Positions 6,219 through 33,996 of a stretch of DNA of 36,201 nt are shown piece after piece (the first letter of the stretch is position 1; the number at the start of each line of letters is the position of its first letter). The stretch comes from Candidatus Poribacteria bacterium (GTDB lineage Bacteria > Poribacteria > WGA-4E > WGA-3G): the NCBI GenBank assembly GCA_007571355.1, contig RKRO01000548.1, positions 1 to 36,201 on the forward strand, read 5' to 3'. The notes below the pieces were generated by a model. That model was not told where the DNA came from. It worked only from the letters and a program-made list of their open reading frames with translations, and did not search any database. Both the position numbers and the translations under genes were made by a program.

Positions 6219-7838
6219 CTAACAAATAATGTGTTCGTATCTTTCACGGAACCTTTCAAGGTATTTGCCTTCGCCATGATATGCCTTGACATCTTCAGGG
6301 TGTGGACGAATCGGTTCGCCGCGTTTCAGAACGGAGGCACTGAATGCTTCGATGTCGAAAGTTTCGTTTGCTGCGTCGTGGAGTGCCTTGACCCCTGCGA
6401 CTGCGGCACCGAGTGCTGCGCCCCCCTTTTCCACGGATAGTATTGGTCTATTCCAGATGCCAGCAACCCGTCTCATGATTTCAGGACTGTCGGTCGCGCC
6501 ACCGGTTACGAATAGCGGGGCTTGTGTCCGTTTTGTGAAGACGGCGGAGTAGATATAGACAGCGGCGAGACTTGTCTCAATGATACCGGTGTAATCTTCT
6601 GCCAATGTTGGTGCTCCAATGGCGCGGATTAATTCATAAGCACCGGAAACGGGAAAGGACTCGGTCTTCGGCTGCCAGAACGTCATAAACTGTCCTGGTG
6701 CGACTTGCTTTAATGCCGCCTCTGCAGGCGCGTATTCCTCTTTTGCTAAACCGTAATTGTTTCTCACTGCATCCCATACCATAGCACCGTTCGTGCGGCA
6801 CCCGAACATGAAAGGCCGGTTGATGCCGTCATACATCGCGTTCGCGAATCCTTCGGGGTCGAGTGTGTCTCCATCGGTTGATACCATGTTGACGAAACTG
6901 GTGCCGAGGCTTAAGAGATCGCCGGCGACAGGGACTTTTGCCTGCGGGTTGTCACCAGAGCCTGCTATAACGGCGCAACGTTCCTCAAACCCGTATTTTT
7001 CTGTGTAGTATGCGGCAAGGTTTCCGACGATGGAATCTGGGCGCGCGAGTGTCGGTAATTTCGAATGAAAGGCTTCTACGCCGCCGGTTAATCCATCTGC
7101 CGTTGCTGCTAACAACGCCGAATCCCATGCCTTTGCCCGGTAGTTCATCAACGACATGCCGCATCCGTTTCCATAGTCGATGGGTACGTTTGCGTTCCCT
7201 GTTAGTACGGCTGGAATGAAACTACTAATCAACTGAATTTTCGCTGTCGCCGTGTAGTGTTCGGGATGCTGCTCCGCGACACGCCGGACGACTGTGCCTG
7301 TGAACCGAAGCGGGGCATCAGAACCGGAGAGACTGATCATCTCTGCCTTGCCGCCGACTGCGTTTCGGACAGCGTCAGTTTGAGAGGCGGTGTTCGCAGT
7401 CATCCATATCGGTGCAGTCGGATATGAGAAAACATCCGATAGCAGCGTTTTTAATTCAGATGCGCTACTTTCTGAGTTTTGGAGGCTGGAGAATATATTC
7501 GCTGCGTTCCGGTTCAGATAAACGTGTCCGTGCTGTTGCCCGGATGTATTGATGACAACGATATTTTCTAAGGTGACACCCGCCTCACGTATATCGGTGA
7601 ACATAGCATCGAGTGATGCGAGATACATCAACGGCGGTTGTTCGGCTTCGCCTTCTTCCCTCGGCGGCAGGATATAATCCTCCCCGATACCGAATCCGTT
7701 GAGTCGTGTATCGGCGCGGTAGTCGAGCGAGTGCTCAAAGCATTTCTCCGCAGTGTCTATATCAATGACGATAGCGGATAGACTTTGCGTACTTGAATCT
7801 AAACCGAGCGCGAGGCGTTGATTTTTGTGGTTAGCCAC
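6219..7838 (-). CDS. FGGY-family carbohydrate kinase, xylulokinase-like (eukaryote-type XylB-like)
   Basis: 539 aa with a GTG start. LGLDSSTQSL (phosphate-1 motif), NTSGQQHGHVYL and the C-terminal GGATDSPEIMRRVAGIW match the FGGY/xylulokinase pattern. Confidence 0.8.
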   Translation of the reverse strand: MANHKNQRLALGLDSSTQSLSAIVIDIDTAEKCFEHSLDYRADTRLNGFGIGEDYILPPREEGEAEQPPLMYLASLDAMFTDIREAGVTLENIVVINTSGQQHGHVYLNRNAANIFSSLQNSESSASELKTLLSDVFSYPTAPIWMTANTASQTDAVRNAVGGKAEMISLSGSDAPLRFTGTVVRRVAEQHPEHYTATAKIQLISSFIPAVLTGNANVPIDYGNGCGMSLMNYRAKAWDSALLAATADGLTGGVEAFHSKLPTLARPDSIVGNLAAYYTEKYGFEERCAVIAGSGDNPQAKVPVAGDLLSLGTSFVNMVSTDGDTLDPEGFANAMYDGINRPFMFGCRTNGAMVWDAVRNNYGLAKEEYAPAEAALKQVAPGQFMTFWQPKTESFPVSGAYELIRAIGAPTLAEDYTGIIETSLAAVYIYSAVFTKRTQAPLFVTGGATDSPEIMRRVAGIWNRPILSVEKGGAALGAAVAGVKALHDAANETFDIEAFSASVLKRGEPIRPHPEDVKAYHGEGKYLERFRERYEHIIC

Positions 7839-10242: not shown

Positions 10243-11097
10243 TTAAAAACGGAACCTCGGAATTCCGTTAATAATTGGGAAATGTTGTTCGCACGCTTCA
10301 CAGTGAAGATGCTGTTCTTCCCATGTAATCCCGCCTTTACACTGCGGACAGACAAGAATCTCTTGTAATGTTTTTCGCTGTCGGTTTTTACCTTTTACCA
10401 CTTTTGACAGCAAGTTTTGGCTTGCAAGCCGCGCCAAAAGCGATTTTACGCGGGAGACGATCCCTCGCGGCACTGCGTTTTTAAGGAGCGGTAGCCACCG
10501 GTTTTTGCCGCGGTTACTACCGTCGGGCGCAAGAAGCGTCTGTAAGGTCGCCGGGCATTCTAAGTCGAGTGTCGGTTCTGCTTCAGGCAGTATTTCGTAA
10601 TCTATTTTGCCTTCCCATTCGTATTGGACGAGGAAGAGGTTGTGGTGCGTAATATGGAACCGTTTCCAGTGTTTGTCTTCTGCCGCCAATGTATGGAAAA
10701 GTTTTCCGAATTGCGGTTTCTGGTTATTCTTTTGTAGCGTTAAACGTCTGTCAATCAGGTTAACAGTCCATCGGTGGTAGTGCCATCCGTATATCCGTTC
10801 GCCTATCTCAGAAGGTGTTTCTATGTAGCCGCGTTGTGCCACGCGCATGAGCTCATCGATAAGTCGTTTCGGGTCTTCAACGTGTTCGAGGACGTGTGCA
10901 CAGATGACGTAGTCAAACGCTTGGTCTGCGAACGGGAGGAACTGTCCATCGGCTTCAACGATAGGTCGGTCGGTGACGATTCTGCCGCCGCGTTGTTCAT
11001 CATCTTCTATGAATTTATCGCATAAAACATCCGAGCGCGCTTTTGGATTGTGACCGCTCCCTATCTCTAAGACAAAGTCGTTCGCGCGAATGTTCAT
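10243..11097 (-). CDS. Class I SAM-dependent methyltransferase with C-terminal Trm112-like zinc ribbon
   Basis: VLEIGSGHNP (motif I) and FDYVICAHVLEHV (Methyltransf_11-like). The C-terminus CPQCKGG...LHCEACEQHFPIINGIPRF is a 4-Cys Trm112/UPF0434-type ribbon. The ATG overlaps the upstream stop (ATGA). Confidence 0.8.
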   Translation of the reverse strand: MNIRANDFVLEIGSGHNPKARSDVLCDKFIEDDEQRGGRIVTDRPIVEADGQFLPFADQAFDYVICAHVLEHVEDPKRLIDELMRVAQRGYIETPSEIGERIYGWHYHRWTVNLIDRRLTLQKNNQKPQFGKLFHTLAAEDKHWKRFHITHHNLFLVQYEWEGKIDYEILPEAEPTLDLECPATLQTLLAPDGSNRGKNRWLPLLKNAVPRGIVSRVKSLLARLASQNLLSKVVKGKNRQRKTLQEILVCPQCKGGITWEEQHLHCEACEQHFPIINGIPRFRF

Positions 11098-11966
11098 TTT
11101 TCTACGACCATGGTGATATAAGGGCTGAAGTACGGAAACGTGTGAGCGATGATTCTGCCTTTTATGCCAAATCCGACAGCCTTTTTGATAATCGTGAACC
11201 CGTTTTGTCGGAAAAATTGTGCCAGATCAATTGAACTGGCGTAATAGGCACTGTCAGCATCTCCCCCGATTGCGTCTGCTTGTAGGTCTGGTTCTCGGTA
11301 GATAAACTGCGGTGATTTCGTGAAGAACCGTTTCTGTAGATAGAGTTGACAGTTCCGTTTGAGCTGTCGGAACGCTTGCCGTTTCGTCTCACCCCAGACG
11401 GGTCTTCCAGATTTGCCGGATATCAGGCGGATCCAGTCGAACATCGGGATTAGCGGCGAACAGAGATTCGGTCCGGAGATTACAATGCGTCCGCCCTTGC
11501 GCACCACACGTATCATCTCACTCAAAGCCGTTTCTACATTTGGTAGATGTTCAACCAATTCATTTGAACAGATAACGTCGAAGGCATCCCTATTAAAAGG
11601 GAGCTCAAGCGCATCGCAAACTTCGTACCGGAGGCTCGGATTTTCCCAGTTCCGGGCTTCTTTGAGAAAAAGCGGTGAAATATCGGTGCCGACGACCTCA
11701 AAATCTGCCTGATTGAGCAGTTTCGCGGAGACACCGTTCCCACATCCGAGATCAAGTATCTTGGAACGCGGTGGTGCGTAACGGATGACCAACTCTACGT
11801 AGTGGCGGAGATAGGTTTCGTCGTGTGCATCCAGAAGATTTTTATAAGTTTCCGATGTTTCGTAGAATTCCCGCATCCGTTGCCGGGTTTTTAAACTATT
11901 AAATTCGGTCACCGTTCCACTTCGTTTTACGGTGGTTTCCGATGAAGTTAGTTGTGTCTGTGGCAT
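11094..11966 (-). CDS. Class I SAM-dependent methyltransferase
   Basis: ILDLGCGNGVSAKLL (motif I), VVGTDISP, FDVICSNELVEHL and GGRIVISGPN. It is translationally coupled to the next methyltransferase gene. Confidence 0.8.
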   Translation of the reverse strand: MPQTQLTSSETTVKRSGTVTEFNSLKTRQRMREFYETSETYKNLLDAHDETYLRHYVELVIRYAPPRSKILDLGCGNGVSAKLLNQADFEVVGTDISPLFLKEARNWENPSLRYEVCDALELPFNRDAFDVICSNELVEHLPNVETALSEMIRVVRKGGRIVISGPNLCSPLIPMFDWIRLISGKSGRPVWGETKRQAFRQLKRNCQLYLQKRFFTKSPQFIYREPDLQADAIGGDADSAYYASSIDLAQFFRQNGFTIIKKAVGFGIKGRIIAHTFPYFSPYITMVVEK

Positions 11967-12094
11967 GAAAAGTGTCCTAAATAATTCACAGAAGATTGGA
12001 CAGGAACCAACAGTTTCCTATTCCACAGAAAAGTGTTCAAACGATAGGAATAATTCGGGATCTGCATTCGCACAGGGAAGCGAACGGACTTTGC

Positions 12095-12496
12095 CTAAGC
12101 GCGGAGCGTATTCCAAGGTACTTCGTCATAAACGTCGATGAGTTGGTATCCCTCTGCGCCTTTGCTGGGACTCAAGGTTACAAACAATTTTGCGGATTCC
12201 GAAGATACGTTAAAGGAAGCGTGGACCATGTCCGCTGGAATAAAGACAGAATCGCCTGCGTTGAGTGTCTGTTTCTTATCTTCGAGCCACTGTTCAACGC
12301 TGCCTTCTATCACGTAGATGACCTCTTCTTGTTCAGGGTGTTTATGGAAGTCGTGTCCGTAGCCTGGAGAGAGTGAGACCTCCATAGCAACGATGTCTTT
12401 TGCGCCGGTGCTTTCTGGTCGGCTCAGCCATCCGATTGTTCCCCAATCAAGTTCGTCTCTTTCCACATCTGCGGATGCAATAAATTTCCCGTTCAT
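12095..12496 (-). CDS. Cupin domain protein
   Basis: 133 aa. GYGHDFHKHPEQEEVIYVIEG and GDSVFIPADMVHASFN are the two cupin motifs. AAGGAG lies upstream of the ATG. Confidence 0.8.
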   Translation of the reverse strand: MNGKFIASADVERDELDWGTIGWLSRPESTGAKDIVAMEVSLSPGYGHDFHKHPEQEEVIYVIEGSVEQWLEDKKQTLNAGDSVFIPADMVHASFNVSSESAKLFVTLSPSKGAEGYQLIDVYDEVPWNTLRA

Positions 12497-18109: not shown

Positions 18110-19696
18110 ATGAATAAGGTGCTGGTCAGCGATTTGCTGTCGCAGCAAGGCTTAGATGTTCTGACAGAAAATGGCAATTTTGAGGTAGATGTCATCCTTG
18201 ATCTCTCACACAAAGCACTGTTGGACCGGATTGCTGACTATAATGCACTGCTGATCAGGAGTGCAACAAAGGTAACCGCCGATGTTATTGAGGCTGCGCA
18301 GCAGTTAAAAGTCATTGGGCGCGCTGGGGTCGGTGTGGATAACATTGACGTGCAGGCAGCAACGCGGAACGGTATCTTAGTTGTTAACACGCCAACGGGC
18401 AATACGATTGCCGCGGCGGAGCATACGATTGCGATGTTGTTGGCGTTGGCGCGCAATATAGTGCCCGCCGGTATTTCGCTCAGGAATCGAACATGGCATC
18501 GCAACGATTTCATCGGTGTTGAATTATACAGGAAGGTTTTCGGGACGATCGGGTTAGGACGGATCGGACGAGAGGTAGCGAGACGCGCACAGGCTTTTGA
18601 GATGCAGGTCATTGCTCACGACCCATACATCTCGGCGAGTGCGGCGGAAAAGATCGGCATCCGGCTTGTGGATCGGGAGACACTATTTCAGGAATCGGAT
18701 TATATCTCTATTCATACTCATCTCAACGCTGAGACCTATCACAGTATCGGAGCGTCTGAGTTTGCCCTGATGAAACCGAGCTGCCGCTTGATTAACTGTG
18801 CACGTGGTGGTATTATTGATGAGGCTGCGCTCTATGATGCATTGAAGGTTGGGGCACTCGCTGGTGCTGCATTGGATGTCTTTGAAGACGAGCCTGCGAC
18901 GGATACGCCGCTGCTGGATTTGGAAAACGTGCTTGCGCTTCCGCATCTCGGTGCCTCGACATCGGAAGCACAGGAACACGTCGCTATTGAAGTGGCCCAG
19001 CAGGTACGGAACGCGCTCCAGGGGCAACCGGTTGCGAATGCTGTCAATCAGCCCAAGATTGATCCGAGGACCCTTGATATTTTGGGACCCTATCTCGAAC
19101 TTGCCGAAAAGATCGGTGGTTTTCAGACGCAGATCGTTGAAGGCCAGATATCGGCGATTAAGATCCATTATAACGGAACGCTTTTTCTGAACGAGGATGT
19201 CACACCGGTAACTGTAGCGTTACAGAAAGGGCTTTTGGCACCCGTGCTCACAGATGTCAACTATGTCAATGCCCCTTTTTTGGTTAAACAGCGCGGGATT
19301 TCCGTTACGGAGACAAAGAGCGAATCGGAAGCGAATTATGCTAACTCTATCGCTATTAGCGTTACAACGGATAAGGGTGAGACAGTGATTGAAGGCACCG
19401 CCTTCGGTAAAAAAGACATCCGCATCGTCCGTATTGACCAACACCATATAAATGTGAGACCGACCGGGTATATCCTCCTCATCTATAACAGCGATCAGCC
19501 GGGAATGATCGGGTTAATGGGGACAATTTTGGGAGAACACAATATTAACATCGCGGATATGACTGTCGGGCGTTCGCATTTATGGGAACTCGCTGTGACG
19601 CTCATCAACGTGGATAGTCCTGTACCTCGACACGTTTTGCAAACGATCGCTTCACAAAAAAAGATTGACTTCGTTAAACAGGTTTTCCTTCCATAG
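18110..19696 (+). CDS. serA: D-3-phosphoglycerate dehydrogenase (long form with ASB and ACT domains)
   Basis: 528 aa. GIGRIGREVARRA (NAD Rossmann), NCARGGIIDE, PHLGASTSEAQ and a C-terminal ACT-like ILLIYNSDQPGMIGLMGTILGEHNINI. GGAGGAG is the SD. Confidence 0.92.
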   Translation: MNKVLVSDLLSQQGLDVLTENGNFEVDVILDLSHKALLDRIADYNALLIRSATKVTADVIEAAQQLKVIGRAGVGVDNIDVQAATRNGILVVNTPTGNTIAAAEHTIAMLLALARNIVPAGISLRNRTWHRNDFIGVELYRKVFGTIGLGRIGREVARRAQAFEMQVIAHDPYISASAAEKIGIRLVDRETLFQESDYISIHTHLNAETYHSIGASEFALMKPSCRLINCARGGIIDEAALYDALKVGALAGAALDVFEDEPATDTPLLDLENVLALPHLGASTSEAQEHVAIEVAQQVRNALQGQPVANAVNQPKIDPRTLDILGPYLELAEKIGGFQTQIVEGQISAIKIHYNGTLFLNEDVTPVTVALQKGLLAPVLTDVNYVNAPFLVKQRGISVTETKSESEANYANSIAISVTTDKGETVIEGTAFGKKDIRIVRIDQHHINVRPTGYILLIYNSDQPGMIGLMGTILGEHNINIADMTVGRSHLWELAVTLINVDSPVPRHVLQTIASQKKIDFVKQVFLP

Positions 19697-19731
19697 CAAC
19701 AAACGAGGTTTTTAATTGATGGACCTCTGGG

Positions 19732-19756
19732 CTGCGCGCCATTCCATGACGCGCAG
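19732..19756 (+). terminator. Weak candidate terminator hairpin after serA
   Basis: CTGCGCG-11 nt-CGCGCAG followed by ATTTCT. The loop is long and the T-tract is poor. Confidence 0.3.
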
Positions 19757-19809
19757 ATTTCTGGGAACTTGTGGTTTAATGGTAATTGTCAGCAAATTTC
19801 AGTATTAAC

Positions 19810-19883
19810 TGGACGTTTTTGATCTTCAGATGGAAACCTAAAAGGTTAGAGGTTGAAAGTGTATTTGCTTAGGTGTTTCTGTG
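19810..19883 (+). repeat. Dispersed intergenic repeat, copy A
   Basis: TGGACGTTTTTGATCTTCAGATGGA matches 29500-29524 at 24 of 25 positions. After an indel, GGTTGAAAGTGTATTTGCTTAGGTGTTTCTGT matches GATTGGAAGTGTTTTTGCTTGGGTGTTTCCGT (about 27/32). Confidence 0.65.
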
Positions 19884-19933
19884 GATTTCTTCAGGTATAC
19901 GTCCATTAACGTTATTTACCCAATTAGCCTAAC

Positions 19934-19971
19934 CGAACCGCAAGGAAAAATTAAAAACCCGAACCGCAAGG
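19934..19971 (+). promoter_or_regulatory. Two tandem copies of the CGAACCGCAAGG(R)A(W)A(R)TTAAAA leader motif just upstream of the 19985 gene
   Basis: CGAACCGCAAGGAAAAATTAAAA starts at 19934 and CGAACCGCAAGGGATAATTAAAA starts at 19960. The same string, CGAACCGCAAGGAAAGTTAAAA, directly precedes the Ldh_2 ATG on the minus strand (10017-9995). Confidence 0.5.
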
Positions 19972-19984
19972 GATAATTAAAAGA

Positions 19985-21391
19985 TTGGATGCTAAACAGA
20001 AATGTCTATTTATTAACGATGAGATTCCGAAGGCAAAGTTATTTGAGAGCGAGAAACGGGAAGTTCATCCCGCCTGTAACACGTCTTGGCGTATTTCACC
20101 GGAACCGTTCTGGGTTACCGAAGCAGAATTAAAATGGTTTGAAGAACTCGGTCCACACCTTCTCAGTTTCTATCGTGCGTGTAATTTACTCTATTCACAG
20201 AGCGTGCGCGGTATTCAACCTTCTTGGGTCGCTGAGTACTTGGAAATCGGGAAACCGGAAACGGTTGTCCAGTATGGGCGAATGAACCGTTTTAAGACGC
20301 AGCTCCCCGGTGTCCTACGTCCTGACATCTTACCGACGGCTAACGGCATGTCGATTACGGAGCTCGATTCGATTCCGGGGTTCATTGGCGCGACGGGTTG
20401 TCTGGCGCGGCTATATGCGCAACTCGGCTATGCAATTGTCGGTGGCGACGATGGGATGGTAAACGGATATGCCGATATGATTCGCGCACTGGCAAAGCAG
20501 GATGCCCCGACGCTTGCGATTGTTGTCTCAGACGAATCAGAGGACTATTGGACAGAGATGGTATGGCTTGCCGATGCACTTTGTGAAGTCGGTGTGACGG
20601 CTTTTACTGTTAAACCACACGACATTATTTTTACCGAAGATGGACTGCTTGTTAAGCAAGGAGACACTAAACTTCGTGTCGATGTGCTCTACCGTTTCTA
20701 TGAATTGTTTGATCTCCCGAATATCCCGAAATCAGAATTAATGTTTTATAGTGCGAAGAAACGCACTGTCGTGATGACCCCGCCCCCGAAATCTTACCTT
20801 GAAGAGAAGTTATGTCTCGCCTTGTTCCATCATCGAACACTTCAGCCGTTTTGGAAACGTCAGCTCGGTAAAAGGACGTACGCGTTCTTGCAGTCAGTGA
20901 TCCCAGAGACGTGGATTATGGACGCGCGTCCTCTTCCGCCGCACGCCGTTATCCCCGGCTTGGCGGTAGAAAGCGGTGCTGTAACGGACTGGCGGCAGCT
21001 CGGTACGCTGACACAAAAACAGCGGGAGTTAGTGATCAAACCGTCCGGTTTTTCTGAATTCGCGTGGGGTAGCCGCGGCGTAGCGATTGGACATGATCTG
21101 CCTACGGAAGAGTGGGAAGGCGTTATTGAAGACAGCCTTGCGAATTTTGGGAAGACACCACATGTCTTACAGCGGTTTCACACAGCGAGACGGGTCCGCA
21201 TGCAGTATTACGATTTTGACGCGGGTGATATGCAAGAGATGGCGTGTCGTCCGCTCCTCCGTCCGTACTATTTTGTTGTCGGCGACACGGTTAAGCTCGG
21301 TGGCATGCAAGCCGCCGTCTGTCCGGCTGACAAAAAGATTTTACACGGTATGGTGGATTCTATTATCGTGCCGTGTGCTCAGATGCAATGA
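19985..21391 (+). CDS. ATP-grasp-fold amidoligase-like protein (glutathionylspermidine-synthase-like arrangement); function unknown
   Basis: 468 aa with a TTG start; there is no in-frame ATG for about 100 codons. LRPDILPTANGMSITELDSIPGFIG resembles the R-x-D...E-x-N-x-x-P segment of GspS-like ATP-grasp enzymes. EEKLCLALF and ELVIKPSGFSEFAWGSRGVAIG resemble the later ATP-grasp strands. The assignment is tentative. Confidence 0.5.
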   Translation: MDAKQKCLFINDEIPKAKLFESEKREVHPACNTSWRISPEPFWVTEAELKWFEELGPHLLSFYRACNLLYSQSVRGIQPSWVAEYLEIGKPETVVQYGRMNRFKTQLPGVLRPDILPTANGMSITELDSIPGFIGATGCLARLYAQLGYAIVGGDDGMVNGYADMIRALAKQDAPTLAIVVSDESEDYWTEMVWLADALCEVGVTAFTVKPHDIIFTEDGLLVKQGDTKLRVDVLYRFYELFDLPNIPKSELMFYSAKKRTVVMTPPPKSYLEEKLCLALFHHRTLQPFWKRQLGKRTYAFLQSVIPETWIMDARPLPPHAVIPGLAVESGAVTDWRQLGTLTQKQRELVIKPSGFSEFAWGSRGVAIGHDLPTEEWEGVIEDSLANFGKTPHVLQRFHTARRVRMQYYDFDAGDMQEMACRPLLRPYYFVVGDTVKLGGMQAAVCPADKKILHGMVDSIIVPCAQMQ

Positions 21392-24502: not shown

Positions 24503-25633
24503 ATGCATCCTTTTTACTTTGTTAGCAACATCGGTGAACTCTATGTTCCCACCGAATATCGGGAGATCGTTTTCGCGCGCGGACGCGTCAAATTGTTCGC
24601 GCATCAGGAGTTAGAGCATCTCAATCGGATCTTTACACACATCCGACACGGCGGCGTTGCCGTTGTGGAAGGGAAATGGGAACAGATTACGGCTGTTATG
24701 GATTATATCCAACGTCACAAACGGGATTTAGTCCAGCAATCGCCTCGCCGTAACAGGTCACGGGGGCGCGACGCGTCGCGTGGAAATCTTGTCGGTAGTA
24801 TGCAAAAAGAAGCATTATCAAGGTTGATGTGTTGGGCAGATGCTGATGGAATTTTACAGGTCGAACCTGCACCCGTTCTCCCAGAGTTGCTGGCACTTGC
24901 TGGTGAACCGATGGGCGAGAATCAGGGGAAACCTTTTCTCCTCCCGCTCATCAAGATTCAACAGATACAAGACGCACTCGCTAAGACTTACCCTATTTAT
25001 GCCCTTGATGCCTCGCTTGTCGCTTCCGAAAATGTTCTCGCGCCGCGTTCGCAGGAGACGATTGCATGTTTTCAGGAGGCGTTGCAGTATGTCCGGAGGT
25101 CGTATGCGTTTGCAGTTGCGGACATCGGGTGCGGGTGCGGGTGTTTAACCCTCTTAGCGCGCCAGGAACTTGGCGATCATGCTGAGGTGTATGCATCTGA
25201 CGTGCTGCCCGAAGCGGTTGCGACGACGAAACTGAACATCCAACGTCTCCTTCCAAATTCAGACGGTCTAACGGTGATGCCTGCCGGTGATCTGTTCGAT
25301 CCGTTTTCAGGACATCAATTTGATGTAGTTATCTTCAATGCACCGTGGGTTGTTGCCCGTGTTCGCAACCGTGCTGAGCTTGCTATCCATGACGAGAAAC
25401 AGGAGACGGTGAGACGGTTTTTCGCACAGGTTTCGGATTTCCTGAAGCCGGGTGGTGCTGTTTTGTTGGGATATGCGGATGCTTCGGGGCCTAAGGCGAT
25501 TGCGAATCTGGAAGCGATCATTGCAGAAGCCGGTTTTGCGGTGGATGCCTCGTTTAATAGACGGATTGCAACGCATCGGTCGAAACGGAAATGGGAGCAG
25601 ATTCGGGTGTATGTGTTACGTACAAATGTCTGA
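24503..25633 (+). CDS. SAM-dependent methyltransferase of the HemK/PrmC-like (D/N-P-P-Y class) type with variant NAPW motif and an unassigned ~190-aa N-terminal region
   Basis: VADIGCGCGCLTLLA (motif I, nt 25115-25147), VYASDVLPEAV, and DVVIFNAPWV (motif IV position, NAPW at nt 25337-25348). The N-terminal half has no motif I recognise and includes an SPRRNRSRGRDASRG linker. There is no clear SD. Confidence 0.65.
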   Translation: MHPFYFVSNIGELYVPTEYREIVFARGRVKLFAHQELEHLNRIFTHIRHGGVAVVEGKWEQITAVMDYIQRHKRDLVQQSPRRNRSRGRDASRGNLVGSMQKEALSRLMCWADADGILQVEPAPVLPELLALAGEPMGENQGKPFLLPLIKIQQIQDALAKTYPIYALDASLVASENVLAPRSQETIACFQEALQYVRRSYAFAVADIGCGCGCLTLLARQELGDHAEVYASDVLPEAVATTKLNIQRLLPNSDGLTVMPAGDLFDPFSGHQFDVVIFNAPWVVARVRNRAELAIHDEKQETVRRFFAQVSDFLKPGGAVLLGYADASGPKAIANLEAIIAEAGFAVDASFNRRIATHRSKRKWEQIRVYVLRTNV

Positions 25634-25694
25634 TGTGTCTTGATTTTTAGTTGACGAGTCATCTGAAAGATGGTACGCTAAGCAAAATATCTAC

Positions 25695-27314
25695 GTGGAG
25701 GTTGTAGAATTGAGTAAGGTACAATATCCTAACCGAGATGCACTTAATAGAGCCCTTGATTATTACTTAGATGCTATGTCCCAGTTCGTCGGTGAATGTT
25801 TAGATGAGCAATCAATTAGAGAATTCTTGAAATTGCAATCAAGTGATGACCTCATAGAAAATATAGAATTTACAGATATTGCAAGTCTCATTAAGAGTCA
25901 TCTTTATTGGTCACAGTCTTTTAATGCGAATTTTAAGATTGTTGATCGTGATGATATCCGTTACTATGATGCTCGGAGTGTAACAAGTTTGATAATAGAG
26001 GGAAGAAATCGAACATCACATCCACCATGGGATTTGGATCCTGAATTCACCCGGACTCAACTGTTCCTTATTGCTGATATACTGAGACAGATTAAGAGAC
26101 CAAATGCCCAACGCGAGGTTGAGGATATCCGAAAAAAACTCTTTGACGATGTTACGGAGCAGCTTGTAGCAAAACAGGTTAAATCTAAAAAGACTGAGTA
26201 TGAGAAGTCTCTTGCAGAAGTGAAGAAACGCTTAGCAGCCGAAGAAGCAAACAACAAGGAACTGTCGAAGCGGCTAAATGACAAGGAGGCTAAGCTAGGC
26301 GAAAAGACGGAAGAACTTGAAGAACTGGCAGGGAAATTTGTAAATATGAGGACAAGTAAACAAAAAGTCGAAAAGCAGCTTGACGCAGAGTCGAAAAAAC
26401 TTGAGGATGAAGAAACGAAACGGCAGGCGTGTGAGGGTAATCTCACTACTATGCAAAACCTATTAACGGTATCGACAATCGGGACGGTATATCCACCTAT
26501 TGAAACTGATTCTACGGTCCGAATACTTGACCGACGCGGCGTGCCCAAGCAAAATTACCTTTTAGAGTTGTTGGAACAAAAGCAACCCACTATTATCTAT
26601 GTTCAAAGTGAAGATAAAATTGATCAGTTATTGGAAAGCGTTGTTCAAGAGAAAGCGGACCTTATTGAAAGGCATGGTGAACAGACCTCTGAGTCAGAAG
26701 AAATGGAGATTTTAGAAAAACTTGAGAACGCAGAAAAGATCGCTGTTGTTTCAGATACGACACTTTCCGCATTAGCATCATCGCACTGTATTGAGCACTT
26801 TGTGTTCTGCCACCTTGTTCCGAGTTTAGATAAATTTTTCAAGCAATGTGAACCTGCTTTTACATCGGAAAAACAGGCTTATCTACATCTCATCTATAAT
26901 GACACAGCTGATGTTAAGTTTTTGGATGAGTGGTTAACTCAAAAATATCCCAGTGAAAAAACGTTAAGAAAGTTGTACGAAGAATTGAGTAGGTTGGCCA
27001 AAACAGGCGACGGTTTTATTGAACCTGAAAATGTTTACAACGAAAATATCTATAACAAATTCGGTATGGCAAAGTTGGGAGTTGAAACCGGACTTGCTAT
27101 TTTTGAGGAATTGCAATTTCTTGATCGAAATGAGAGAGGCGTGAAAGTTTTACCGGATCCAGAGAAGAGAGATTTAGGCGAATCGAAAATTCATTGTAGT
27201 GGCGAGGCACTAAGACAGGGAATAGCAGATGCTCAGGCACTTCAACTTAAACAGCCGATTGAACAAATCTGGGAAGAGATAAAGGAATTATTTCCGCCGG
27301 TGTCTATCGTCTAA
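25695..27314 (+). CDS. Swt1-like HEPN domain + coiled coil + degenerate RecQ-type helicase C-terminal lobe protein (candidate RNase effector)
   Basis: The ORF starts at GTG 25695, or at TTG 25710, which has GGAGG 8 nt upstream. The HEPN Rx4H motif EGRNRTSHPPW lies at nt 26001-26030. Residues ~150-250 are a K/E-rich heptad region. Residues ~298-405 are colinear with the RecQ RecA2 lobe, but the motif V/VI catalytic residues are substituted. G+C is markedly lower than in the flanks. Confidence 0.6.
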   Translation: MEVVELSKVQYPNRDALNRALDYYLDAMSQFVGECLDEQSIREFLKLQSSDDLIENIEFTDIASLIKSHLYWSQSFNANFKIVDRDDIRYYDARSVTSLIIEGRNRTSHPPWDLDPEFTRTQLFLIADILRQIKRPNAQREVEDIRKKLFDDVTEQLVAKQVKSKKTEYEKSLAEVKKRLAAEEANNKELSKRLNDKEAKLGEKTEELEELAGKFVNMRTSKQKVEKQLDAESKKLEDEETKRQACEGNLTTMQNLLTVSTIGTVYPPIETDSTVRILDRRGVPKQNYLLELLEQKQPTIIYVQSEDKIDQLLESVVQEKADLIERHGEQTSESEEMEILEKLENAEKIAVVSDTTLSALASSHCIEHFVFCHLVPSLDKFFKQCEPAFTSEKQAYLHLIYNDTADVKFLDEWLTQKYPSEKTLRKLYEELSRLAKTGDGFIEPENVYNENIYNKFGMAKLGVETGLAIFEELQFLDRNERGVKVLPDPEKRDLGESKIHCSGEALRQGIADAQALQLKQPIEQIWEEIKELFPPVSIV

Positions 27315-28888
27315 TCACGGACAATAGACACAGGCGTTCCATCTTGTAATCGGTGTTGATCAGCCACAATCACCGATGTACCTCTGGCGAGTTGGGAGGT
27401 GACCTCAATTTCACCGCTGTGAACGCCGCCAACATTTACCCGTTTTGTGCGTGCCACGTTTCCTTCAACAACGAAAATAGTACCACTGCCGTTTTGGATA
27501 TTCAAGACCGAGCGCAACGGCAGCAGTTGGACATTCTTCCGCTCCCCGGTTTTGATAGAAACCGTAATAGCGGTTCCAGGTTTAAGGCTGTTTTGGGAAT
27601 TCGGGACTGTCGCGCGGACAAGCACGGTGTTATTATCACGGTTAACGGTCGGACTGATAAAAGAGACCGTGCCGACAATATTCCGAATGCCGGAATTCGC
27701 AGAAATCAAGACGAGGTCGCCGTTATTAATACGGGACGCGTCTCCGGCAGGTATATTCCATTCCGCCTTGAGGACATCGACTGCGACGACTGTAAACACC
27801 GGTTTTGCTGAAGGTATTGAAACGAGTTGCGCATAATCCCCAACGTTCAAATGTTGCGTTGCAATAACACCGTCAATCGGTGATTTAATCGTTGCGTCAT
27901 CTAACTGTTCTTGCGCCAGTTTCAGTTGTTCTGTGGCTTGCTTCACTGCGGCTTTTGCGATTTCAATTTCTCGTTCCCAGGACTTTGCTTCTACGAGTTT
28001 TTGAGCTGTGTGGAGGTTCGCTTGCGCCTGATTAACATCCGATTCCGCCGACGCAATTTCTCGTTCCCACCCTCGGCTCTCAACAATCTTCTGAGCGACA
28101 GCCAATTCCGCTTTCGCCTTTTCCACCGACGGGTGTGTCGCACCCTCTTTAAACTGTTCTGCCGTGACGACAGCCTCTTGATAACGCGTTTGTGAGACTT
28201 TAAAACTTCGTTCTGCTGTCTCGAGGTTGCTATCGCTGACGTGTTGTTTCTCGTGAAGTGACTTCGTCCGCTCGTAATCCAACTTGTTTTTATCGAGTTC
28301 TGTTTTTGCGCGTTCTAATGACTGTTGCGCGTTTGTTTTTGAACGTTCTATGGATGCGATGGCTGCTTGATATGTTGTTTCTGCTTGTGTCAGTTGGTTG
28401 CGAATCCGCATTTCAGCGAGAGATTTTGTTTCTACAAGTTTCGCCTGCGCTGCCATCAACGTTTCCTGAGCGTTCGCCAGTTGGGATTCGACACGTGCTT
28501 GCGCGCTCGCTTCCGTTGTTGTGAGTTGGGATTGTGCGCTGCTTAATGCGGATTCAGCACGTATGACAGCAAGCGCAGCCTCTCTTGGGTTGCTCTGGGC
28601 GAGCACGGCATCTTTCGCTACACTTTGGCCCACCTTCGCATCGAACGAAACAATTTTACCGGAAACATTGGCAAAGATCTTTACTTCGGCATTGGGTTGC
28701 AGATGCCCGGTGTACTCCTTAGTTGAGACAAAGGTCCCGCGTCTGGCTGTTGTAGTGGACACAGTTACGGGGGTGTTTTGTGCCACCAAGCTGCTAACAC
28801 TGAGGCAGCAAATGACAAAAACCCATAGCAGCTGCGCTTTTAGATGGGTCGCGATCGACGGTTTCAAAATATAGTTATTATTGATCAT
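27311..28888 (-). CDS. Periplasmic adaptor (membrane fusion protein, HlyD/RND-MFP family) with an unusually long alpha-helical hairpin
   Basis: N-terminal anchor helix. Lipoyl-like halves VKIFANVSGKIVSFDAKVGQSV and ATIKSPIDGVIATQHLNVGDY are separated by about 230 helical residues. A beta-barrel and a membrane-proximal domain follow (VQLLPLRSV...GTPVSI). Confidence 0.85.
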   Translation of the reverse strand: MINNNYILKPSIATHLKAQLLWVFVICCLSVSSLVAQNTPVTVSTTTARRGTFVSTKEYTGHLQPNAEVKIFANVSGKIVSFDAKVGQSVAKDAVLAQSNPREAALAVIRAESALSSAQSQLTTTEASAQARVESQLANAQETLMAAQAKLVETKSLAEMRIRNQLTQAETTYQAAIASIERSKTNAQQSLERAKTELDKNKLDYERTKSLHEKQHVSDSNLETAERSFKVSQTRYQEAVVTAEQFKEGATHPSVEKAKAELAVAQKIVESRGWEREIASAESDVNQAQANLHTAQKLVEAKSWEREIEIAKAAVKQATEQLKLAQEQLDDATIKSPIDGVIATQHLNVGDYAQLVSIPSAKPVFTVVAVDVLKAEWNIPAGDASRINNGDLVLISANSGIRNIVGTVSFISPTVNRDNNTVLVRATVPNSQNSLKPGTAITVSIKTGERKNVQLLPLRSVLNIQNGSGTIFVVEGNVARTKRVNVGGVHSGEIEVTSQLARGTSVIVADQHRLQDGTPVSIVRD

Positions 28889-32933: not shown

Positions 32934-33089
32934 ACCTACCTCCTAAACGGAAATAATGTGCGATTGAGATTGAACCTTGGTCAATTCTGAATTTTAACAT
33001 AGTCTTAACACGAATTGCAAAGAGATTTGAAATCTTTTTTTTATGCTGTTATTAAGGACGCTGTTAATTACGGAATCGTGGGAAAAAAG

Positions 33090-33118
33090 TTGAATTTTTC
33101 TAATCAATGTGGTAATAT
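33090..33118 (+). promoter_or_regulatory. Probable sigma-70 promoter of the ConA-like gene pair
   Basis: TTGAAT (33090-33095), 17 nt ending in TGG (extended -10), then TAATAT (33113-33118). It lies about 100 nt upstream of the ATG at 33217. Confidence 0.5.
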
Positions 33119-33216
33119 GTTTGAAGTTAATCACAATGTATGGAACGAACCCAAAATTGTTTGGGATGCAAAAGATGCTTTCAAATGTTCCTTACCCAAA
33201 ATAGAGAGGATTTGGA

Positions 33217-33996
33217 ATGAAAAAGATTACTTGCATAATGGCAGTTTTGCTTTTATCTGTATGTCTTATTCCCGGTGTTTTCGCGCAGACCTTGATGAGC
33301 GACGAATTCGTGGGAACCGAACAAGACTTGCAGTCCTTCTGGCAAGTCAAAGATGGCGATAAGAGTCCTTGGGAGCTGCAAGATGGATTGCTGGTTGCCG
33401 AAGCGGGTTTCGATCAGAATGTATGGACTGATGACACATCTACACGTTTTTATCAGATCACGGATCAGCAACAGTTTGACATTGAAACGTCAATGGTTGT
33501 TGATTACGCTGACGCGTGTACTGTGGCTGGCATCATCGTGTATTCTGCCACAACAAAAGATCACCAGGACCGTGATGGTCAGTGGGTAACATTGAAATTG
33601 TGGGGACGTGGTGCTGCGCAAGGCAATAATGCAGTGCTTCAATACCAACGTCGTCAGAATGATGATGCTGCTTTAGGATATGTTGGTACACAAGTCGATT
33701 ACAACCCAGACCAAGGTGTTATCCCGATTGAGTTACGTGTTAAACGCGATGGCGATGACTACGAGTCGTGGTTCAAGCCGAATGGAGAAGGCGATTGGGT
33801 CTCAGTGAGTACAGTGACAAACGAACTCGAAGATCCCCTTGAGGTTGGCCTCTACGTCGGTATCTGTGAAGGCGAAAGTGCTATAGGTAGAATGACTGTT
33901 ACTTTCGACTATTTCCACGAGGCCTCCAGCCCGGCGACACCGGTTGACCCGCGCGATAGGCTCGCTGTTACGTGGGGTGGACTCAAAGGACAGTAG
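33217..33996 (+). CDS. Secreted concanavalin-A-like lectin/glucanase-fold protein (DUF1349-like), paralog A
   Basis: Signal peptide MKKITCIMAVLLLSVCLIPGVFA. DEF..T..DLQSFWQV...WELQDGLLV..AG.DQNVW, FDIETSMVVDY...AGIIVYS and WVTLKLWGRG form a beta-sandwich-like pattern. The fold assignment is tentative. Confidence 0.65.
   Translation: MKKITCIMAVLLLSVCLIPGVFAQTLMSDEFVGTEQDLQSFWQVKDGDKSPWELQDGLLVAEAGFDQNVWTDDTSTRFYQITDQQQFDIETSMVVDYADACTVAGIIVYSATTKDHQDRDGQWVTLKLWGRGAAQGNNAVLQYQRRQNDDAALGYVGTQVDYNPDQGVIPIELRVKRDGDDYESWFKPNGEGDWVSVSTVTNELEDPLEVGLYVGICEGESAIGRMTVTFDYFHEASSPATPVDPRDRLAVTWGGLKGQ

Follow-up and report, generated by a model that had tools for sequence, protein, structure and literature searches.

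Gene organization and expression signals

The stretch analyzed here (the window, 36,201 nucleotides of Candidatus Poribacteria contig RKRO01000548.1, assembly GCA_007571355.1) carries on its forward strand a gene for a HEPN-domain protein, located between an MTS methyltransferase gene and a convergent HlyD-like adaptor gene. An initial annotation, made from the sequence alone, described the product as a Swt1-like HEPN domain, a coiled coil and a RecQ-type C-lobe with a winged helix, and this three-part architecture is supported by the analyses below. In addition, the C-terminal half derives from the lineage's own RecJ, and the gene behaves as a recombining mosaic at a fixed chromosomal position. 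Poribacteria are uncultured and largely sponge-associated.

The only long open reading frame (ORF) at these coordinates, 25695..27314 (+), encodes 539 residues from a GTG codon. A TTG codon at 25710 would instead give 534 residues, the length of the database gene call (P0001), and is most likely the true start, because all 16 loci inspected keep the arrangement TGGAGGT-N7-TTG in their DNA and one locus (L016) lacks a start codon where the GTG stands. We therefore list the coding sequence as 25710..27314 (+), preceded by a Shine-Dalgarno sequence, GGAGG (25697..25701, +), which lies 8 nt upstream of the TTG and is likewise conserved in all 16 loci. Residue numbers in this text follow the 539-residue form; subtracting 5 gives the likely true numbering, so that R104 and H109 become R99 and H104.

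A sigma-70-type promoter was located at 25651..25679 (+), with a −35 element TTGACG (25651-25656), a 17-nt spacer, an extended −10 TG (25671-25672) and a −10 element TACGCT (25674-25679). The window −10 element agrees with the consensus at only 3 of 6 positions, and the promoter was missed by a simple scanner. Nevertheless, TTGACA-N17-(TG)nTATGCT is kept 5′ of the gene in most of 17 aligned loci, from which the gene appears to have its own conserved promoter. The start of 25640 given in the initial annotation falls in this promoter region and outside the ORF. The gap to the upstream MTS gene is 61 nt. Taken together, the weak TTG start and low G+C content (described below) are consistent with low expression of a toxic protein.

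At its 3′ end the gene shares a 4-nt tail-to-tail overlap (27311..27314) with the adaptor gene (27311-28888, −). In other genomes the two genes are separated by 19-270 nt or more. The window allele has 16 residues after the sequence QIWE, versus a family median of 195, and the tight overlap thus reflects loss of a C-terminal tail carried by most alleles. The initial annotation had correctly noted the overlap but attributed it to insertion into a tight spot, an explanation that does not hold.

A probable N-terminal HEPN domain of the Abi2/Swt1 clade

The N-terminal domain (aa ~10-135, 25722..26099, +) is all-alpha and Swt1-like, as judged from an AlphaFold (AF2) model, mainly helical with a pLDDT of 87 and a pTM of 0.82, and from HEPN_Swt1 matches in orthologues. 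Within it, the sequence IEGRNRTSHPP (nt 25995-26027) includes the Rx4H catalytic signature R104-N-R-T-S-H109 (26004..26021, +), with R encoded at 26004-26006 and H at 26019-26021. The initial annotation had placed this motif at the same nucleotides. Both residues are invariant in 38 orthologous N-domains that share 35-73% identity with the window copy, with Rx4H or Rx5H spacing, and also across all three HEPN types defined below; N105 is at least 90% conserved.

The Pfam model HEPN_Swt1 (PF18731) matched 31 of these 38 N-domains over nearly its full length (best E 4e-7). The orthologue from locus L035 exceeded the gathering score (30.0 versus 27.5 bits), while the others scored 16-25 bits. Since the profile matches are consistent across the family and the catalytic dyad is invariant, we accept the domain as a probable HEPN of the Abi2/Swt1 clade, with membership of the window copy, which is below Pfam detection, conferred by transitive homology. 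The intact and invariant Rx4-6H site leads us to predict a metal-independent endoribonuclease. A PDB search with the N-domain profile returned InlB noise only.

In a 2013 survey of HEPN domains, bacterial members of the Abi2/Swt1 clade are described as catalytically active and tied to restriction-modification or abortive-infection systems (PMC3710099). The family described here resembles HEPN_Swt1 in the near full-length profile match of most orthologues, the Rx4-6H motif and a polar residue after the arginine. In contrast, a coiled coil with a RecJ C-terminal module is not among the partners in the survey, which comprise a DUF499 AAA+ ATPase, giant proteins with SF-I helicases, transmembrane helices and, in eukaryotic Swt1, a PIN domain (PMC3710099).

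A profile search with the N-domain alignment returned only short proteins. Two of these were checked as candidate stand-alone HEPN paralogues and rejected, since both come from low-coverage long-read assemblies, occupy the usual syntenic locus and are probably pieces of a frameshifted gene. Separately, a 475-aa ORF (L051:7989-9416, JAJDWA010000050.1) at a non-syntenic site adjoining a 403-aa ORF carries a HEPN domain of the same type joined to another C-terminal half, and the HEPN module is thus not confined to the present architecture.

A coiled-coil linker and variable C-terminal extensions

Residues 136-260 (26100..26474, +) form a coiled-coil linker composed of 17% E, 17% K and 11% L. The AF2 model has long helices here, the sequence matches lamin, SMC and JetC coils, and hydrophobic residues recur with a 3.5-residue periodicity (p = 0.008 versus shuffles), in agreement with the K/E-rich, heptad-like coil first described from inspection. 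Matches to SMC, JetC and LmuB models in PADLOC and NCBIfam, including JetC/LmuB matches in three orthologues (E 6.5e-5 to 5.6e-4), were dismissed as compositional coiled-coil signal.

Linker and tail lengths vary widely within the family. The window linker spacing of 154 aa is the shortest observed (family median 198). Most family members, among them P0003, P0012 and P0100, extend past QIWEEI into a variable tail that is absent from the window allele. This tail comprises an acidic low-complexity linker, a helix-turn-helix-like segment (…EEQVREIRSRSAAGESNSELA…) and one or two repeats of a ~130-aa module beginning SEFWQPIRDGEFG. When 219 aa of the P0012 tail were scanned against Pfam, nothing was matched at E ≤ 0.01.

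A degenerate RecQ-type lobe in the C-terminal half

The C-terminal half begins with a degenerate RecA2 lobe of RecQ type (helicase superfamily 2, SF2; aa 262-405, 26478..26909, +), identified from Helicase_C matches, Foldseek and similarity to the RecJ protein P0149. It continues into a helical and winged-helix tail (aa 406-535, 26910..27299, +; winged helix at aa ~440-490) that corresponds to PF10141 (ssDNA-exonuc_C). Pfam Helicase_C matched the window copy at E 3e-3 and 26 of 36 orthologues (best E 3.9e-6), with two homologues passing the gathering score. The AlphaFold model has an overall pLDDT of 74, with values of 70-91 per 10-residue block over aa 261-530, and shows three helices followed by a beta hairpin in the tail. 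Foldseek searches with the C-terminal half returned S. aureus RecJ (8y30) as the top hit, along with RecQ catalytic cores, the D2-Zn-WH portion of hRecQ1, MrfA and the DDX41 C-lobe, at E values of 1e-5 to 3e-4 (1e-5 to 1e-3 with WRN included). Sequence searches of the PDB were less informative: the whole protein retrieved only lamin coils and weak DEAD-box C-lobes, and the C-module profile nothing useful.

Alignment with intact RecJ-helicase fusions and a RecQ-like protein revealed that motif IV is retained, while VVSDTTLSALA and KQCEPAFTSEK stand at the positions of motif V (T..GxGxD) and motif VI (QxxGRxGRxG), respectively. No DEAD or ResIII match, which would indicate a RecA1 lobe with Walker A and B motifs, was found in this ORF or in neighbouring genes. 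Similarly, no RecQ_Zn_bind match was obtained in the window ORF or its orthologues, although the RecQ-like control P0217 has one. Given the missing RecA1 lobe, the replaced motifs V and VI and the missing Cys4 subdomain, the protein cannot be an ATP-driven helicase. Relative to members of the RecQ family (E. coli, 1oyw/1oyy; C. sakazakii, 4tmu; hRecQ1, 6jtz), the module shares a colinear RecA2 fold, a winged helix and a motif IV-like IIYVQSE, but has neither a RecA1 lobe nor the Zn-binding Cys4 subdomain. Overall, these results bear out the proposal of an inactivated RecQ-type C-lobe with motif V and VI losses, a winged-helix tail and no accompanying RecA1/DEAD lobe. Despite these losses of catalytic features, ~26 positions of the C-module are invariant.

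Origin of the C-terminal module from RecJ

A full HMMER scan of the C-terminal half (aa 262-539) over 1.84 billion (1.84e9) representative proteins gave only 109 matches. Outside the family, the module is closest to the C-terminal ~260 residues of P0149 (42% identity, E 9e-46), an 861-aa protein that combines DHH, DHHA1 and RecJ_OB domains and carries the annotation RecJ of Candidatus Poribacteria (RKU34831.1). Other ~850-aa RecJs with this module are more remote, and ~1200-aa RecJ-HIRAN-DEAD-Helicase_C fusions, which preserve an intact RecQ-type motif VI, GRAGRDG, are more remote still. The fusions (P0184/P0187) are colinear with the module of the HEPN protein and keep motif VI, which is lost in the latter, where CEPAFTSEK aligns to GRAGRDG.

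Several observations connect the module specifically to the Poribacteria RecJ. Motifs V and VI are replaced alike in both proteins, which also have in common the sequences xHFVFCHLxP, C(E/Q)PAF, LHLIY, QKYP and TGLxIFEEL. The tail region is colinear with the tails of RecJ and RecJ-helicase fusions, and PF10141 matched 21 of 36 orthologous C-halves (best E 2e-10; window copy E 5.5e-4). A neighbor-joining tree places the HEPN-family modules next to that of Poribacteria RecJ, as its sister group within the clade of RecJ C-modules. These sequence comparisons show that the C-terminal half arose by duplication of the C-terminal module of the lineage's RecJ, in which the helicase motifs were already degenerate. 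The RecQ alignment of the initial annotation was thus correct as far as it went, but the direct origin, the tail of the host RecJ, had been missed.

The likeness to long-form RecJ (PF10141; S. aureus RecJ, 8y30; RKU34831.1) amounts to 42% identity over ~260 aa and the same degenerate motifs. Conversely, the HEPN protein has no DHH/DHHA1/OB core, and so is not a RecJ: DHH, DHHA1 and RecJ_OB are absent from the window ORF and present in P0149, P0163 and P0171. The two copies of the module also differ in divergence, with a mean identity of 58% in the HEPN family versus 98% within the RecJ cluster. In that cluster of 14 sequences, module and RecJ core are conserved to the same degree (98.2% versus 98.3%).

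A set of larger proteins bears on the history of the module itself. P0184, P0187 and P0188 (~1200 aa), together with P0189/P0251 from Clostridia, combine RecJ (DHH-DHHA1-OB), HIRAN, a complete RecQ-like SF2 helicase and a PF10141 tail. The ~850-aa RecJs, including that of Poribacteria, look like derivatives without the RecA1 lobe, and the comparison suggests that PF10141 in general may be a relic of a helicase C-lobe and winged helix. The duplication described here shows how such a non-catalytic RecQ-like helicase remnant in RecJ can be duplicated and reused. It also offers a handle on the function of the widespread RecJ PF10141 module, as the target sensed by the HEPN protein is probably the ligand of that module. 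A literature search returned nothing on the present architecture, on S. aureus RecJ 8y30 or on RecJ-HIRAN-helicase fusions. Among the RecJ-related matches, one 1848-aa protein (P0156) has two or three DHH/DHHA1/RecJ_OB units, a Toprim match and the C-terminal module; it may represent RecJs fused in tandem, or result from an error of assembly or gene calling.

A fixed position in Poribacteria and a family-wide base composition

All 50 related loci in species-representative genomes belong to Poribacteria, and ~40 of the 50, namely those with enough flanking DNA, have the gene in the same chromosomal slot. Counted by species representatives, the slot is occupied in ~45 Poribacteria species. Genes for PhyH, LamG, GFO/IDH/MocA and MTS methyltransferase proteins precede the slot, and it is followed by those for the HlyD-like adaptor, MsrA and others. 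A Tara Oceans contig with a very divergent member (34% identity in the C-module) has the same gene arrangement. The ORF is intact in ~45 species.

The composition of the gene deviates strongly from its surroundings. Its G+C content is 39.8%, versus 49.6 ± 2.1% in 28 other window ORFs (z = −4.6), and its G+C content at third codon positions (GC3) is 35.9%, versus 50.1 ± 3.3% (z = −4.3). As GC3 also deviates, K/E-rich amino acid usage alone does not explain the break. The five hand counts of G+C from which the break had first been noticed (0.40, 0.30, 0.35, 0.583 and 0.483) were right within rounding, and the claim holds on full computation. Two further low-G+C 500-nt intervals occur in the window, 33001-33500 (0.392) and 19501-20000 (0.418); each overlaps an interval (32934-33216 and 19697-19984) left between the listed ORFs, which are those of 150 aa or more, and neither represents a whole gene.

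From this break the initial annotation had concluded that the gene is a horizontally acquired single-gene island, in effect a recent low-G+C defence insertion between two resident genes. The composition break (z about −4.5) and the tight 4-nt overlap are what such an insertion would leave, but the remaining evidence makes this account highly improbable. GC3 is below that of the syntenic neighbours in 43 of 43 orthologue loci (mean 0.378 versus 0.478) and shifts with the G+C content of each host genome; the low value is therefore a family trait rather than a mark of recent arrival. Moreover, the slot is shared across Poribacteria species and with the distant Tara lineage, the gene has its own promoter, no integrase, tRNA or insertion sequence (IS) element lies beside it in the window, and the C-terminal half derives from the lineage's own RecJ. 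A conserved neighbourhood among homologues, which the initial annotation had itself named as evidence that would count against its view, is what we observed, and it tells against the acquired-island part. We conclude that this is an old gene at a fixed position, found only in Poribacteria, and not a recent import. The case cautions that low G+C content alone does not identify a recent island.

In one genome (OZ246979.1), the gene is split into halves now ~230 kb apart, with the break within the coiled coil and identical pairs of transposase ORFs (211 aa plus 173/207 aa; L045:6773-7926 and L052:8729-9984) flanking the halves, indicative of an IS-mediated rearrangement. Truncated alleles also exist, among them a 332-aa allele (L048) without the RecJ-like module. 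The gene is thus dispensable in at least one genome.

Independent exchange of the HEPN and RecJ-derived modules

The gene is considerably more diverse than the genes around it. Mean pairwise identity is 48% for the HEPN domain and 58% for the C-module, versus 76% for the MTS methyltransferase, 80% for LamG and 87% for GFO/IDH/MocA. HEPN domains fall into three types, with at least 55% identity within and ~35-45% between types. HEPN identity is uncorrelated with that of the C-module (rho 0.11) or of neighbouring genes (rho 0.09-0.16), while C-module identity tracks the neighbours (rho 0.64-0.76).

Comparison of individual pairs of loci reveals discordance in both directions. For L007/L025, the neighbouring GFO gene is 97% identical and the C-module 87% identical, with a HEPN identity of only 40%; for L025/L027 the corresponding values are 99%, 63% and 89%, such that the C-module is the divergent part. 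Synonymous divergence (dS) follows the same pattern. HEPN dS is 1.69 in L007/L025 (neighbours 0.12-0.51), C-module dS is 1.03 in L025/L027 (neighbours 0.06-0.32), and in L010/L032 the HEPN domains are nearly identical at dS 0.011 against a neighbour dS of 0.33-0.76. Sliding-window identity jumps at ~aa 140 and ~aa 300, which correspond to both ends of the coiled coil and indicate recombination breakpoints there. The rho values, the identity switches at domain borders and the discordant dS together establish the gene as a recombining mosaic, a feature absent from the initial annotation. Horizontal replacement of alleles within the phylum is thus real. The gene offers a clear example of a locus that is near-universal and fixed in position in its phylum, yet a recombining mosaic.

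The ratio of nonsynonymous to synonymous substitution (dN/dS) is 0.10-0.50 in the gene versus 0.03-0.25 in its neighbours. Each module is apparently functional but less constrained, and the diversity stems largely from alleles exchanged between lineages. An alternative that would account for the same numbers is that the protein is non-catalytic or decaying, with a HEPN domain that only binds RNA, as proposed for eukaryotic Swt1, or with drift under relaxed constraint, the low G+C content and fast divergence both reflecting weak selection. A dN/dS 2-5 times that of the neighbours is in line with this proposal, as are low GC3, which fits AT-biased mutation under weak selection, the truncated and split alleles, and the minimal form of the window copy. 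We nevertheless find it quite improbable, because the R/H dyad is invariant across three HEPN types, ~26 C-module positions are invariant, ORFs are intact in ~45 species with promoter and ribosome-binding site conserved, and the dS discordance reflects import of alleles, which goes beyond mere drift.

A proposed role in biological conflict

HEPN RNases need two HEPN domains to form a composite active site. In the mechanism that we propose, the coiled coil would form a parallel dimer in which two HEPN domains meet and the composite active site is completed. The RecJ-derived module would bind whatever the RecJ module itself binds, be it ssDNA or a DNA end, SSB, a partner helicase or a foreign protein that targets RecJ, and ligand binding would switch the RNase on or position it. 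The result would be a single-gene, self-regulated RNase of the abortive-infection type, coupling a DNA-end or RecJ-pathway signal to RNA cleavage.

Because the HEPN head and RecJ-like tail are exchanged independently and the gene diverges far faster than its neighbours, we regard such a role in conflict, as a self-contained abortive-infection-type RNase and possibly an addiction-like element, as the most likely of the explanations considered, although in absolute terms it remains an even call; the activity, dimerization and binding are all predicted. While the mosaic pattern, of a sort typical of conflict or immunity genes, supports this assignment, several observations weigh against it. In its phylum the gene is close to universal and keeps its synteny, a core-like distribution that contrasts with defence genes, which are normally patchy, and it is flanked mostly by ordinary genes of metabolism or transport. 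The dN/dS of 0.1-0.5 indicates net purifying selection, with positive selection not demonstrated. The N-domain of the window copy has no Pfam match of its own, and Foldseek searches with its model gave nothing significant in PDB or BFVD (best E 0.86 and 0.79), the best matches being ferritin and haemoglobin helical bundles. PADLOC-DB v2 yielded only JetC/LmuB coiled-coil matches to the window copy (E 3e-5 to 3), no relatives were found in phage GenBank genomes or IMG/VR contigs, and our literature search gave no paper on the function of the RecJ PF10141 module.

The main alternative is a housekeeping accessory of the RecJ pathway, in which the module recruits the RNase to sites of RecJ action (resected ends, gaps or SSB-coated ssDNA) and the RNase clears RNA such as R-loops, primers or transcripts during repair or replication, with no role in conflict. 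The core-like syntenic distribution, conserved promoter, net purifying selection, paralogy with RecJ and lack of a match in defence databases all point in this direction. However, three deep, reassorting alleles of a catalytic domain amid neighbours that are 93-99% identical would be abnormal for a housekeeping gene. Widely varying linker and tail lengths, interruption by an IS in one genome, truncation in others and confinement of the family to one phylum are also difficult to reconcile with such a function, which we therefore consider possible but doubtful.

A more specific form of the conflict role is that the RecJ-derived half acts as an integrated decoy, a bait copy of the RecJ interaction module of the host, joined by a dimerizing coil to a suicide RNase. 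A phage factor targeting RecJ, or aberrant DNA ends or SSB complexes arising during infection, would trip RNA cleavage, and lineages under frequency-dependent selection would exchange and recombine their bait and effector modules. We put this forward as an unlikely elaboration; if true, bacteria would have an equivalent of the integrated decoys known from plant NLR immune receptors, built from the cell's own RecJ.

A similar logic is found in the anticodon nucleases PrrC and RloC, HEPN RNases restrained by a large regulatory module. In RloC, a Rad50-like coiled coil that reportedly responds to DNA damage serves as this module, and RloC thus sets a precedent for the coupling of DNA status to RNA cleavage by a regulated HEPN RNase. 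Unlike those proteins, the family described here has no ABC/Rad50 ATPase head and no zinc hook, and its HEPN domain is N-terminal rather than C-terminal. No sequence similarity to RloC or PrrC turned up in the Pfam, PADLOC and NCBIfam scans.

Fusions of HEPN RNases to sensors are a recurring theme of prokaryotic immunity, and a HEPN RNase fused to a sensing module is a known kind of protein. What is new in the sources searched, to our knowledge, is the duplicated tail of the host RecJ as partner, the restriction to one phylum and the combination of strict synteny with modular hypervariability. We know of no earlier description of a sensor copied from the host's own RecJ. The gene is accordingly a candidate lineage-specific immunity or addiction locus for Poribacteria.

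Neighbouring genes and defence-associated inserts

As the initial annotation had also stated, the architecture corresponds to no named defence system, PADLOC having given coiled-coil noise only. No cognate antitoxin, as in HEPN-MNT pairs, was apparent, since no conserved small ORF adjoins the gene and the adaptor gene is convergent. A window ORF of the same length (6219-7838) was considered and found not to be a paralogue of the HEPN gene.

The upstream MTS methyltransferase gene (24503-25633, +) encodes 376 aa, including the motif FNAPW and a ~190-aa uncharacterized N-terminal region. Most genomes have it in synteny with the HEPN gene, but as a separate transcription unit. Its product matched PADLOC mad2 of the MADS system (E 1e-16) over the catalytic domain only. 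We rejected the methyltransferase as a partner, given that the mad2 match is to a generic domain, its divergence shows little relation to HEPN type (rho 0.14) and it is missing upstream in locus L043.

In other loci, genes for TnpB, IS transposase, FGE-sulfatase, WD40 and DUF6575 proteins are inserted beside the gene. Only DUF6575 among these variable inserts is linked to defence, and we accordingly rejected the presence of a classical defence island. In 10 related loci (L048:9127-9786, L003, L004, L008, L014, L028, L031, L037, L049 and L056), the gene is followed immediately, and in the same orientation, by a DUF6575 ORF (144-219 aa; Pfam E 1e-26) that matches PD-T4-10_B of the PD-T4-10 system (E 4e-7). 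In contrast, the HEPN protein matches no PD-T4-10 model, DUF6575 is absent from the window and the association is facultative. DUF6575 may therefore be a facultative accessory, or a separate defence gene in the same spot.

Two further inserts were recorded. In locus L010, a TnpB/IS605 OrfB gene (11040-12464, −) with a Cas12f1-like TNB domain and HTH_OrfB_IS605 lies between the HEPN gene and the adaptor. Finally, a 189-193-aa ORF (MPKHNQSKALG…) adjoins the adaptor in L010, L037 and L038.

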